From Escherichia coli (GTDB taxonomy: Bacteria > Pseudomonadota > Gammaproteobacteria > Enterobacterales > Enterobacteriaceae), in NCBI RefSeq assembly GCF_016903815.1, contig NZ_CP069973.1: a stretch of 64,000 nt of DNA; one strand, given 5' to 3'. Positions within the stretch are counted from its first letter, which is position 1, and each line of letters starts with the position of its first letter. The translations under genes and the position numbers were made by a program. Below are positions 30,797-35,176 of the stretch, piece after piece. Under the pieces are notes generated by a model, which was not told the DNA's origin, did no database searches, and saw only the letters and a list, made by a program, of their open reading frames with translations.

Positions 30797-30932
30797 TTTT
30801 TTGTTAGCCGGATAAGGCACAGCTGCGTCCGGCAATTTCACCGCTCAGTACATGTGTTTACGCTGCGTCGATGCACAGCCTCATCATTTTGCAGTATCCT
30901 TAAGATATTCCTTATATCTTCAGGAGATCGTC

Positions 30933-31637
30933 ATGGACAGATTCCCACGTTCTGATTCAATTGTACAACTCCGGGCTGGCTTGCAAACTTATATGGCGCA
31001 AGTCTATGGCTGGATGACCGTTGGCTTGTTGCTGACCGCATTTGTTGCCTGGTATGCGGCTAATTCCGCGGCCGTGATGGAGCTGTTGTTCACTAACCGT
31101 GTCTTTTTAATCGGTCTGATCATCGCGCAATTAGCATTGGTTATTGTGTTATCAGCGATGATTCAAAAGCTGAGCGCAGGTGTAACGACGATGCTCTTTA
31201 TGCTTTATTCGGCGCTGACGGGTCTTACGCTTTCCAGTATTTTCATTGTCTATACCGCTGCTTCTATCGCCAGTACTTTCGTCGTTACTGCCGGGATGTT
31301 TGGCGCAATGAGCCTGTACGGTTACACCACGAAGCGCGATCTAAGCGGCTTTGGCAATATGCTGTTTATGGCGTTAATCGGCATTGTGCTGGCATCGCTG
31401 GTCAACTTCTGGCTGAAAAGCGAAGCATTGATGTGGGCAGTCACCTACATCAGCGTGATTGTCTTTGTCGGATTGACGGCGTATGACACTCAGAAATTGA
31501 AAAATATGGGTGAGCAGATTGATACCCGCGACACGTCGAACCTGCGCAAATATTCCATTCTTGGCGCGTTAACCTTGTATCTGGACTTCATCAACCTGTT
31601 CCTGATGTTGCTGCGGATCTTCGGCAACCGCCGTTAA
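30933..31637 (+). CDS. ybhL: BAX inhibitor-1 family inner-membrane protein
   Basis: ORF track 261 aa; ATG at 30933 (MDRFPRSDSIVQL, GGAG upstream) gives 234 aa, 7 predicted TM. Confidence 0.92.
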   Translation: MDRFPRSDSIVQLRAGLQTYMAQVYGWMTVGLLLTAFVAWYAANSAAVMELLFTNRVFLIGLIIAQLALVIVLSAMIQKLSAGVTTMLFMLYSALTGLTLSSIFIVYTAASIASTFVVTAGMFGAMSLYGYTTKRDLSGFGNMLFMALIGIVLASLVNFWLKSEALMWAVTYISVIVFVGLTAYDTQKLKNMGEQIDTRDTSNLRKYSILGALTLYLDFINLFLMLLRIFGNRR

Positions 31638-31655
31638 TTCTTTTTCACCATCAAT

Positions 31656-31683
31656 ATCCCGGCCATGTGTCGGGATTTTTTTG
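31656..31683 (+). terminator. putative intrinsic terminator after ybhL
   Basis: ATCCCG-N9-CGGGAT hairpin followed by T7. Confidence 0.55.
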
Positions 31684-32395
31684 TGCACAGAAAACCCCCA
31701 GCTAGGCTGGGGGTTCCGGAAAGCTTTCAGCTTTGAGCCAGTTATTAAAACCCCTTTTGATTTGTTAAAACACCTTGCGGTCTGGCAACTGCAAGTGTCA
31801 AACAAGAAATCAAAAGGGGGTCCCAATGGGGAACGAAAAGAGCTTAGCGCACACCCGATGGAACTGTAAATATCACATAGTTTTTGCGCCAAAATACCGA
31901 AGACAGGTGTTCTACAGAGAGAAGCGTAGAGCAATAGGCAGTATTTTGAGAAAGCTGTGTGAGTGGAAAAGCGTACGGATTCTGGAAGCTGAATGCTGTG
32001 CAGATCATATCCATATGCTTGTGGAGATCCCGCCCAAAATGAGCGTATCCGGGTTTATGGGATATCTGAAAGGGAAAAGCAGTCTGATGCTTTACGAGCA
32101 GTTTGGTGATTTGAAATTCAAATACAGGAACAGGGAGTTCTGGTGCAGAGGGTACTACGTCGATACAGTGGGTAAGAACACGGCGAAGATACAGGATTAC
32201 ATAAAGCACCAGCTTGAAGAGGATAAAATGGGAGAGCAGTTATCGATTCCCTATCCGGGCAGCCCGTTTACGGGCCGTAAGTAACGAAGTTGGATGCAAA
32301 TGTCAGATCGTGTGCGCCTGTTAGGGCGCGGCTGGTAAGAGAGCCTTATAGGCGCATTTGAAAAACCTCCGGCTATGCCGGAGGATATTTATTTC
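31684..32395 (+). mobile_element. IS200-family insertion sequence (IS200/IS605 family, about 0.7 kb)
   Basis: Contains Y1 transposase gene; left-end perfect palindrome AAACCCCCAGC-TAG-GCTGGGGGTT and a right-end subterminal hairpin CCTCCGGC-TAT-GCCGGAGG; ends approximate (about ±15 bp). Confidence 0.7.
31826..32284 (+). CDS. tnpA: IS200 TnpA (HUH/Y1 transposase, 152 aa)
   Basis: MGNEKSLAHTRWNCKYHIVFAPKYRR...HIHMLVEIPPK... closely matches recalled Salmonella IS200 TnpA; ORF track's upstream extension rejected. Confidence 0.92.
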   Translation: MGNEKSLAHTRWNCKYHIVFAPKYRRQVFYREKRRAIGSILRKLCEWKSVRILEAECCADHIHMLVEIPPKMSVSGFMGYLKGKSSLMLYEQFGDLKFKYRNREFWCRGYYVDTVGKNTAKIQDYIKHQLEEDKMGEQLSIPYPGSPFTGRK

Positions 32396-32553
32396 TTACT
32401 AAAAACGACACTTAACAAGTACCAGGTATAAAATATGCCTTATGGCCGAGCGGAAGTGTTTTCCGTATCCATAAATACAAAAGTATTTTGTATGCGTGGT
32501 TTTAAATTTATTGATGGTGAATATTAATATTTTTTCTAGGGACAACTAAAAGA

Positions 32554-32943
32554 ATGGAATCATACTCGCAAAACAGCAATAAATTAGATTTTCAGCACGA
32601 GGCCAGGATATTAAACGGTATATGGCTCATTACCGCTTTGGGTATGGTGGCAACCGCAGGGCTGGTCCTGGTGATCATCATGAATGCCGCATTAATGAGT
32701 GAACGACCCGTTTGGGTAATAAGTTGCTTAATGATAGTGTTATGGTCAGGCATTATCTCGCATGGACGAAATAAGCTCCTTGAACTGGCAGGAAAATGCC
32801 ATAGCGAAGAGTTGTGGAGTCCGGTTCGTTGCGCTTTTACAGGTGCATTAACACTCTATTACTATTTTATCGGCTTCTTTGGGATACTTGCCGCTATAGC
32901 TATAACGCTTGTCTGGCAAAGGCATACGCGTTTTTTTCATTAG
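32554..32943 (+). CDS. ybhM: YbhM-like membrane protein, apparently truncated (129 aa)
   Basis: N-terminus MESYSQNSNKLDFQHEARILNGIW, about 3 TM segments; much shorter than the ~237 aa I recall for K-12 ybhM. Confidence 0.65.
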   Translation: MESYSQNSNKLDFQHEARILNGIWLITALGMVATAGLVLVIIMNAALMSERPVWVISCLMIVLWSGIISHGRNKLLELAGKCHSEELWSPVRCAFTGALTLYYYFIGFFGILAAIAITLVWQRHTRFFH

Positions 32944-32978
32944 TCGTAAATGCACATACTAAAGAACTTAACTAAACT

Positions 32979-33935
32979 TCACATCGCCGCTTCATTTTTC
33001 GCTCGTAGCTTCTTCGCCTGGCTTTCCAGTAGCAGGTAACAGATCAGCGCCAGCAGCAGCGGGATAAAGTAATACAGGACGCGATAAGCGAGCAGGGCGG
33101 CGATAATGCTCCCTTTCGAGGTATGCTCCCCAGCCAGTAGCGCGATAAATACCGCTTCCAGCACACCAATCCCCGCCGGAATATGCACGATGACGCCAGC
33201 AATACTACTAACCAGTAACACGCCCAGTACAAAGAAATAGTTCACGCTTTGACCAAGTAACAGCCAGATAATCGCCCCCATTACCATCCAGTTAACGCTG
33301 GAAATCAGCATCTGGGCGAGGGCAAATTTCCATGAAGGCAGCACCAGCTTTTGTCCTTTGATGGTCATATGGCGGTGCTTCGCGAAAGCGCAAAACCACA
33401 AATAAACCGCGATAATCATCAATAAGCCAATGCCGAGAATACGCAGCGTGGTTTGATCGACATACCAGTGATCCGGCAACTCCACCACGCCTGCGGTAAA
33501 GATAATCCCTGCCAGTAAAATATAGCCCAGCCAGTTGGTGGTAATACTGAGCGAGAAAATCCGCGTAATAGTGCTGCCCGGTAACCCTAGCCGGGAGTAC
33601 AAACGATAGCGCATACCAATGCCGCCGACCCAGGTACTGAGCGTCAGGTTGAAGGCGTAGCAGATAAACGACACCAGCATCACCTGGCGCTTCGCCAGTT
33701 TGTGACCGCAGTAAAAGCGGGCGAGCAGATCATAGCAGCCGTAAATCAGATAACTGACGACCACCAGCCCGACCGCACTGAGCAACGCAACGCGATTGTA
33801 GTCGCGGATGACCTTCCAGACCTCTTCCCAGTCCACCTTTTTGGCGTAGACCACCAGCAACACTATCACCGCGATAAAAAACAGCCAGGTGAGGATCTTC
33901 TTTGCTAAGCGCCAGCGTGGGTGTGATTTACTCAT
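32979..33935 (-). CDS. ybhN: inner-membrane protein (UPF0104 / lysylphosphatidylglycerol synthase TM region-like)
   Basis: 318 aa polytopic ORF, first gene of ybhN-clsB-ybhP arrangement. Confidence 0.93.
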   Translation of the reverse strand: MSKSHPRWRLAKKILTWLFFIAVIVLLVVYAKKVDWEEVWKVIRDYNRVALLSAVGLVVVSYLIYGCYDLLARFYCGHKLAKRQVMLVSFICYAFNLTLSTWVGGIGMRYRLYSRLGLPGSTITRIFSLSITTNWLGYILLAGIIFTAGVVELPDHWYVDQTTLRILGIGLLMIIAVYLWFCAFAKHRHMTIKGQKLVLPSWKFALAQMLISSVNWMVMGAIIWLLLGQSVNYFFVLGVLLVSSIAGVIVHIPAGIGVLEAVFIALLAGEHTSKGSIIAALLAYRVLYYFIPLLLALICYLLLESQAKKLRAKNEAAM

Positions 33936-35176
33936 CAGGGTTTTACCCCCGTGTTTTCAGTTTCTACCCGATCCTGCGTTTCCATTGTCGGCTGAGCGGG
34001 CGGGTCAACCTGCGCCAGACGTGGTGTGTGTGCCGGAAGCCAGCCGACCAGCGCCGGGAAGTGGCGTAAAAAGTGGAAGGCCAGCACGCTTTTGGTCAGA
34101 TTCCACCAGGTGCGTTTCGGCAGCATGGTTTCATCCACCTGCTGGCAGTCTGCGGCGATAATGCCGTTCAGATTATCGCGCAGCGTCTGGTTAAAATGAC
34201 GATCGTGGATGATGACATTTGCTTCGAGATTCAGTGACAAACTGAGCGGATCGAGATTACTGGACCCTACCGTCGCCCAGTGATCGTCCATCAACGCCAC
34301 TTTGCCGTGGAGCGGGCGGCGGCGATACTCAAAAACCTGAACGCCGCCTTTAACCAGATAGTTATACAGCAAGCGCGCGCCGACTCTGACAATCGGCATA
34401 TCCGGTTCGCCCTGAATGATCAGTTTGATCCGCACCCCGCGCCGTGCCGCTTTACGCAAGGCGTGTAAAAATCGATAGCCGGGGAAGAAGTAGGCGTTGG
34501 CGATAATCACTTCCCGCCGTGCCTGAGTGAGCATTTTCAGATAGTGACGTTCAATATCATCGCGATGTTCTTCGTTATCGCGCCAGACCAGCAATACCTG
34601 CGCTTCTCCCGGCTGGCGGTTCTCTTCCGCTTTGTGATGACGTCGCCACCAGCGTCGTGCCGCGCTCTGTCCTGGCAGGTTTTCCAGTTCAAATTGCAGA
34701 ATATCTTCGACAATCGGCCCTTCAAGGCGCACCGCGTAATCCTGTTTAGCCTCTGGACCGTAGCTGGACATATGCTCGGCGGAGTAATTCAGCCCGCCAA
34801 TAAAGGCGATATGCGCGTCGATCACCACAATTTTGCGATGCATCCGGCGAAACACATTGGTGCGCATACCAAAAAGGCGAGGGCGGGGATCGTAGTAGCG
34901 GAACACCACGCCAGCGGCCGTCAGTTCATTGACAAACTCATCGCTGAGATCCGGCGAACCGTAGCCATCAAGTAAGACTTCCGCTTTTACCCCGCGTTGC
35001 GCTGCTGCCAGTAGTGCCGCATGCAGTTGTTTGCCGACGTCATCCTCAAACCAGATAAACGTTTCAAGAATGATGCGTTCTTGTGCCTCGCCAATCGCCT
35101 TAAACACCGCGGGATAATATTGCTCGCCGTTTTCCAGCAACTGGATCTTATTGCCTTCGCGCCAGCTACATTTCAT
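33935..35176 (-). CDS. clsB: cardiolipin synthase B (PLD superfamily, two HKD motifs)
   Basis: 413 aa ORF with HRKIVVID and [11 protein letters not shown] motifs. Confidence 0.95.

Follow-up and report, generated by a model that had tools for sequence, protein, structure and literature searches.

Organisation of the ybhL-ybhM-ybhN region

The window, which is the whole 64,000 nt stretch of Escherichia coli DNA analysed here, carries the gene order moaC-moaD-moaE-ybhL-[IS200]-ybhM-ybhN-clsB-ybhP. The synteny moaCDE-ybhL-ybhM-ybhN-clsB-ybhP is that of K-12, and the orthologous locus moaE-ybhL-ybhM-ybhN-clsB is present in both genomes. Together with DNA and protein alignment to K-12, this identifies the ORF at 32554–32943 (+ strand) as the orthologue of K-12 YbhM (b0787, NP_415308.1). 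The ORF runs from an ATG start to a TAG stop over 390 nt and specifies 129 aa, whereas ybhM of K-12 MG1655 (b0787) is annotated at 820793–821506, a length of 714 nt or 237 aa. On either side of the resulting gap in ybhM, the nucleotide identity to K-12 is about 95%.

The stop codon of the short ybhM is separated by a 35 bp spacer (32944–32978) from the convergent gene ybhN (32979–33935, − strand), which is intact and encodes 318 aa according to both the ORF list and the annotation of homologous loci. The spacer has the same length in K-12, where ybhN ends at 821542 and the 35 bp gap after the ybhM stop occupies 821507–821541. On the other side of ybhM, the interval to ybhL is occupied by an IS200 element (31683–32394). 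The ybhL ORF called mechanically at 30852–31637 begins at an upstream ATG and is 261 aa long; annotated YbhL has 234 aa and starts at 30933 (MDRFPRSD...), so there is no real difference from K-12.

An earlier, sequence-only reading of this region described a 129 aa ORF with about three transmembrane (TM) helices, adjoining an IS200 and separated by 35 bp from ybhN, and gave K-12 YbhM as about 237 aa. All of these points agree with the ORF list and the K-12 annotation, which excludes the possibility that K-12 ybhM itself encodes only about 129 aa, and a Kyte-Doolittle scan finds three hydrophobic spans in the short protein against seven in K-12 YbhM. The same reading had the 3′ end of K-12 ybhM overlapping ybhN, which is incorrect; because of this supposed overlap, the shortfall was estimated at about 268 bp, while alignment to K-12 gives 324 bp. 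It also proposed that an internal deletion had been accompanied by a change of frame. The deletion is borne out, as a single clean gap in the alignment to K-12 ybhM, but the frame change is not: the C-terminal residues match those of K-12, the last 74 being identical, and are not derived from a frameshift.

An in-frame deletion between short direct repeats

The deletion removes exactly 324 bp, equal to 108 codons (K-12 codons 36–143). The short YbhM is therefore K-12 YbhM minus residues 36–143, with residues 1–35 and 144–237 kept, and over these two segments it is 96% identical to the K-12 protein (NP_415308.1). Colinearity with K-12 extends over the C-terminal 94 residues, which differ by four substitutions only, A38V, V43M, I53V and I55V (short-allele numbering). 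Start codon, promoter, reading frame, C-terminus, stop codon and the spacing to ybhN are all as in K-12.

The anatomy of the breakpoints was read from 8 short alleles aligned with 14 full-length ones. Imperfect 11 bp direct repeats, CAGGGCTGGCC and CAGGGTTGGCC, flank the deleted segment and match at 10 of 11 positions. In full-length alleles the left repeat reads CAGG[G/A]CTGGCC (codons 35–38) and the right repeat CAGGGTTGGCC (codons 143–146), the two being 324 bp apart. One copy, CAGGGCTGGTC, remains at the junction in the window (32657–32667, + strand), and all 8 short haplotypes keep a single, chimeric copy. Since the C at position 6 of the left copy is retained in the junction, the crossover lay within TGGCC. 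The T at junction position 10, which gives rise to A38V, is private to the window haplotype.

The parental alleles have a repeat on each side of the lost segment and the product has exactly one copy, as expected of a direct-repeat deletion. The geometry of an IS-mediated adjacent deletion is not found, as the right end of IS200 is at 32394 and the breakpoint at 32657–32667. Judged from the alignment, the 324 bp loss has the features typically left by slippage during replication or by recombination over a short homology, and involves no IS end. It resembles the short-direct-repeat deletions of other bacterial genes, in which the same signature of one chimeric copy and no other rearrangement is seen; compared with the usual slippage deletions, it stands out only by being in frame and by joining two TM helices that run in the same direction.

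Predicted product of the short allele

YbhM is an uncharacterised inner-membrane paralog of ybhL and yccA, and belongs to the BI-1/TMBIM family. Full-length K-12 YbhM matches the Bax1-I profile (Pfam PF01027) with 75.1 bits over profile positions 3–205. The short protein still falls within this family (34.5 bits against a cutoff of 34.1, E = 2.4e-8), with a match limited to profile positions 129–205 of 207. It does not have the seven TM helices typical of BI-1 proteins: the missing residues 36–143 take away the last part of TM1, all of TM2 to TM4 and the first part of TM5, which K-12 YbhM has.

What remains of these helices is joined in a hybrid TM1/TM5 helix (32608–32694, + strand; codons 19–47) of 29 residues, the N-terminal 17 contributed by TM1 and the C-terminal 12 by TM5. 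TM6 (32707–32763, + strand; codons 52–70) is kept, with the conservative changes I53V and I55V, as is TM7 (32830–32916, + strand; codons 93–121), which contains the motif LYYYFIGFF. The short product is predicted to be a three-pass membrane protein; as the four passes removed are an even number, TM6 and TM7 should face the same way relative to the N-terminus as in the full-length form.

A structural reference is offered by BsYetJ (PDB 4PGR and others), the bacterial BI-1 homologue of known structure and a member of the same Pfam family, with which YbhL aligns over about 190 residues. BsYetJ has been reported (Chang et al. 2014) to be a pH-sensitive Ca2+ leak channel, in which a pair of Asp residues in TM6 and TM7 is said to act as a di-aspartyl pH sensor. 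YbhL and BsYetJ share the motifs YD and LYLDFINLF. The corresponding YbhM motifs are SHGRN and LYYYFIGFF in both short and full-length alleles, with G (in SHGRN) and Y (in LYYYFIGFF) at the conserved Asp positions of BsYetJ; thus the Asp pair is absent even from full-length K-12 YbhM. A phmmer search with YbhM against PDB sequences gave no match at E ≤ 1.

The short allele differs further from BsYetJ in being without most of the fold. The BI-1 fold, as seen in the BsYetJ structure, consists of two triple-helix halves, TM1–3 and TM4–6, arranged around TM7. With both halves gone, the short protein cannot adopt the seven-helix fold and should be unable to act as a BI-1-type channel, and it is most likely a loss-of-function remnant. 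The publications found to mention ybhM contain nothing on the function of YbhM or on this allele, and those on YbhL, YccA or Bax inhibitor proteins contain nothing on YbhM.

Distribution of the short allele in E. coli

The frequency of the allele was estimated across 5,426 complete E. coli genomes. Probes for several haplotypes were concatenated with CT spacers, as an unspaced junction probe had given a false 28 nt seed in full-length alleles. A 48-mer probe for the window-type deletion junction matched 280 of the 5,426 genomes, and the union of seven junction haplotype probes raised the number of short-allele carriers to about 572 (10.5%), a census that depends on exact 28 nt seeds and so would miss unseen junction haplotypes, amounting to at most about 40 genomes. 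The full-length allele, detected by the union of five segment haplotype probes, is present in 4,809 genomes. Short and full-length alleles together account for 5,381 of the approximately 5,421 genomes with the locus, leaving about 40 in other states. An apparent absence of the K-12 deleted segment from about 1,265 genomes (4,156 matches) proved to be an artefact: the B2-type full-length allele has no exact 28-mer in common with K-12 and is missed by megablast.

The split of the carriers by haplotype was estimated from evenly spaced rows of the junction census. The 2017C type and the NR3736 type (G36E, N44D) each account for about 190 genomes, the window haplotype (A38V) for about 94 and the 'AC' types with L31 for about 95. 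The junction haplotypes beyond the reach of the first probe were P3 and P5, which have CAGGACTGGCC at the junction, and P4, which has CAGGGTTGGCC together with the nonsense change Q122*. The P4 product (L018:2501-2890, L019:2501-2890) is 121 aa long. Strain 7/2 (NZ_CP023820) is 100% identical to the window over the 721 bp tested. Strains with the exact window haplotype include some named '405' and 'O102:H6', presumably pointing to ST405, as far as strain names can be taken as a guide.

At the protein level, the short YbhM is identical to RefSeq WP_001522650.1 and to the translation of the gene annotated in strain EFF60, and the exact 129 aa sequence occurs in at least 1,000 public contigs. The surrounding 90%-identity cluster has 452 member sequences, which are named either 'hypothetical protein' or 'FtsH-binding integral membrane protein'. 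Some members have L31 instead of M31, and residues around the junction also vary; three (P0002, P0007 and P0008) show C-terminal frameshifts or read-through extensions. The short ybhM is, then, a common and already catalogued allele, an ordinary natural variant. Entries of 129 aa described as 'hypothetical protein' or 'Bax inhibitor 1 family protein' (WP_001522650.1, WP_000446924.1, WP_000446922.1 and others), which stand in hundreds of E. coli genomes, should be named ybhM with residues 36–143 deleted. The allele also makes a convenient lineage marker, and in combination with IS200 it marks one sublineage.

One origin or several

Carriers of the short allele mostly cluster together on both flanks of ybhM, yet they differ by 1–2.5% among themselves. 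Among the 5,426 genomes there is no near-identical full-length counterpart of any short type, the best reaching 95.5–97.8%. Together, these observations speak for an old deletion, passed on by descent and later reshuffled by recombination. It would have occurred at least once, in a haplotype resembling that of G3/10 and Z0117, through slippage during replication, or recombination over a short homology, at the pair of 11 nt repeats. The short allele may then have been passed on vertically and spread by recombination, with IS200 probably inserting afterwards into the ybhL terminator of one sublineage (ST405 / O102:H6 by strain names).

It is also plausible, although we would put it at somewhat under an even chance, that the same 324 bp were lost two or more times by slippage at the 11 nt repeats, making them a recurrent hotspot. 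Three repeat chimeras are found, GC and AC, which match variants of the left copy, and GT, which matches the right copy. Their agreement with different parental copies points to separate events, but the same repeat variants could result from point mutation or from short conversion tracts with one end at the junction. On both flanks (0.2% and 0.8%), carriers of P4 fall inside the full-length cluster of K-12 and Z0117, which again would suit a second event, whereas the retained 3′ part of P4 is equally close to other short alleles and to full-length alleles. P5 is closest to the full-length G3/10 allele (4 differences, compared with 6 to another short allele). Recurrence is opposed by the missing near-identical counterparts noted above, and by the grouping of most short carriers in one cluster on the downstream flank. 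An argument for a single origin based on L31M, which lies beside the junction and was present in all of the first eight short alleles, was dropped, since short variants with L31 exist.

The ybhN-clsB flank (window 32979–35176 and the homologous loci) is unusually variable from lineage to lineage, with up to 4.3% nucleotide difference and a dS of about 0.13, yet its dN/dS of 0.02 marks strong purifying selection. The tree of the upstream flank differs from that of the downstream flank for 18KM2445 and P4b, which indicates recombination breakpoints around ybhM.

Constraint on ybhM and selection on the remnant

Compared within the same genomes, pairwise dN/dS is 0.14–0.18 in ybhM and 0.02 in ybhL and ybhN. 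This weak constraint, the lack of the conserved Asp pair and the occurrence of independent lesions elsewhere fit a gene that is dispensable and weakly constrained in E. coli. The dispensability of ybhM is useful for assigning function to the three or four BI-1 paralogs. In our assessment the 129 aa ORF is very probably a natural in-frame deletion allele of ybhM, and most likely a tolerated loss-of-function remnant of a dispensable gene.

An unlikely alternative is that the three-helix product is functional and selectively maintained, for example as a TM6–TM7 module that has kept an interaction with FtsH or the paralogous YbhL and YccA, the hybrid helix having adapted since the deletion. Several statistics from the 8 short and 14 full-length haplotypes bear on this. 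The ORF is intact in 8 of 8 short haplotypes, whose flanks are 1–2.5% apart (the Q122* change of P4 only trims the last 8 residues), and the promoter is intact as well. The ratio of nonsynonymous to synonymous changes is 0.18 among short alleles, the same value as full-length alleles give for these codons; of the TM6–TM7 variants absent from the 14 full-length alleles, 3 are nonsynonymous and 7 synonymous (p = 0.0016 against neutrality). An intact ORF, an unchanged ratio and a synonymous bias would fit continued selection on the remnant. Private amino-acid changes (A17V, A28S, L31M, G36E, A38V, I42F and N44D) cluster in codons 17–44, around the hybrid helix (Fisher p = 0.025).

These signals are weakened, however, by the small number of haplotypes sampled and by the behaviour of the data as sampling grew. 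As more full-length alleles were included, fewer variants remained 'private', so that recombination from full-length alleles is a sufficient explanation, with much of the synonymous diversity possibly imported in this way. The clustering in the hybrid helix falls to p = 0.12 once two mutations within the repeat are left out, and chance alone can leave an ORF of 390 nt free of stops after about 10 neutral substitutions. The protein cluster also includes members altered at the C-terminus by a frameshift, an extension or a stop, other strains carry many further disruptions of ybhM, and the publications found give no function even for full-length YbhM. A more elaborate version, in which about 10% of E. 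coli would maintain a mini-membrane protein encoded by a long-lived second allele, with purifying selection on TM6–TM7, an adaptive hybrid helix and possibly more than one hotspot origin, is likewise improbable.

Several other states of the locus were seen. A W39* change (TGG to TGA), located exactly at the left repeat region, makes ybhM a pseudogene in 16 genomes, including VE-T2 (L013:2074-2787). IS1 has inserted independently within ybhM in SCEC020026 (L022:1297-2787) and in H243 (SY3626), so that the gene is annotated as two fragments. In strain 3359 (L014:3001-4100), an IS1B stands at the expected ybhM start with yliM/ompX directly after it; ybhM, ybhN, clsB, ybhP and many downstream genes have been lost in association with IS1.

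Outside the window, 750 of the 5,426 E. coli genomes have an extra BI-1-family gene of 234 aa (WP_001299026.1) between ybhL and ybhM, as at L013:1300-2004, L023:2501-3205 and L024:2501-3205. Its product shows about 28% identity to YbhM and 25% to YbhL, making it a third tandem paralog that segregates in the species. The genomes with this gene also have a replacement of the first ~33 nt of ybhM (MNSRSANNITND... in place of MESYSQNSNKLD...). The idea that W39* is common to all 750 was rejected, as the stop is found in 16 only and typical three-gene loci keep an intact ybhM.

The adjacent IS200 element

The element between ybhL and ybhM is of the IS200C type (31683–32394, + strand), delimited by alignment to K-12 and XJ34, and is the single copy in the window. 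It carries tnpA at 31826–32284 (Pfam Y1_Tnp, PF01797; 130.7 bits), an STnc490 RNA element (Rfam) at its 5′ end (31693–31816) and a right-end hairpin at 32366–32384. Relative to K-12, it is a simple addition of 712 bp. The Y1 (HUH) transposase, hairpins at both ends and absence of a target-site duplication place it in the IS200/IS605 family, whose elements have no inverted repeats. Its 712 bp length, Y1 transposase, STnc490 element, terminal hairpins and site beside a terminator hairpin are all shared with IS200C. The insertion point is the intrinsic terminator of ybhL (31656–31682, + strand), a stem-loop followed by a run of seven T residues that was found by a terminator scan; the element begins directly behind this T run.

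The core promoter of ybhM (32405–32432, + strand; ACGACA-16-TATAAA) is intact. In K-12, ybhM has a constitutive RpoD promoter within an H-NS-bound spacer (PMC3946193), and its hexamers are also present in the window. The right end of IS200 lies 10 nt upstream of the −35 hexamer and 160 bp upstream of the ybhM ATG. With its position close to the −35 hexamer, in a spacer bound by H-NS, the element could alter the regulation of ybhM even though it is not the cause of the deletion.

The sequence-only reading had attributed the shortened gene to this neighbour, an internal deletion with frame change caused by or associated with the IS200. Besides the short distance to the ybhM start, the near-constant co-occurrence in the window haplotype (about 93 of 94–95 genomes) speaks for such a link. 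A wider census argues against it. With junction probes whose arms are too short to seed where the junction is absent, the IS200/flank junction at this site was found in 95 of the 5,426 genomes. IS200 and the short allele occur together in the window and about 93 genomes (95 − 2 = 93; 94 − 1 = 93), while XJ34, by inspection, and its near-twin XJ6-3, by inference, have IS200 next to a full-length, 714 nt ybhM. Conversely, about 480 of the 572 deletion carriers have no IS200 junction at the site; these include EFF60, with an identical 129 aa protein, and six more loci with a short allele (2017C-4173W12, ETEC1748, HR5-1, 18KM2445, NR3736 and A10). Most genomes have neither. All four combinations of IS200 and deletion thus exist, leaving the proposed link unsupported, and a restriction of the deletion to IS200-bearing genomes can be rejected from the same counts (572 against 95) and from EFF60 and XJ34.

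The structure of the locus agrees with the census. About 265 bp of intact sequence, colinear with K-12, lie between the end of IS200 and the breakpoint, the breakpoints coincide with a direct repeat and not with IS ends, and the deletion is in frame with a C-terminal part colinear with K-12. An origin of the deletion linked to IS200 is thereby refuted; the deletion arose independently of the element, which is probably a later, sublineage-specific insertion. Co-location of an IS and a lesion in one genome is no evidence of causation.

In XJ34 (L002:1770-2560, compared with window 31640–32420), an IS200C is inserted in the same terminator T-run and in the same orientation, in an unrelated background. 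The XJ34 locus has a full-length ybhM and a divergent ybhL 3′ end, with 8 T residues instead of 7 and 5 SNPs in the IS200. The shared site suggests either that the ybhL terminator is an insertion hotspot or that an old insertion has been moved by recombination.

Relationship of the two length classes

The least probable reading, that the short form is ancestral and the 237 aa form arose from it by insertion or duplication, draws on nothing beyond the existence of two length classes and can be considered extremely unlikely, as the full-length protein covers Bax1-I profile positions 3–205 of 207, like its paralogs YbhL and X, while the short form is without positions 1–128, BsYetJ aligns end to end with YbhL, and the long form is found in 88.6% of genomes and in every deep lineage sampled (A, E and B2).
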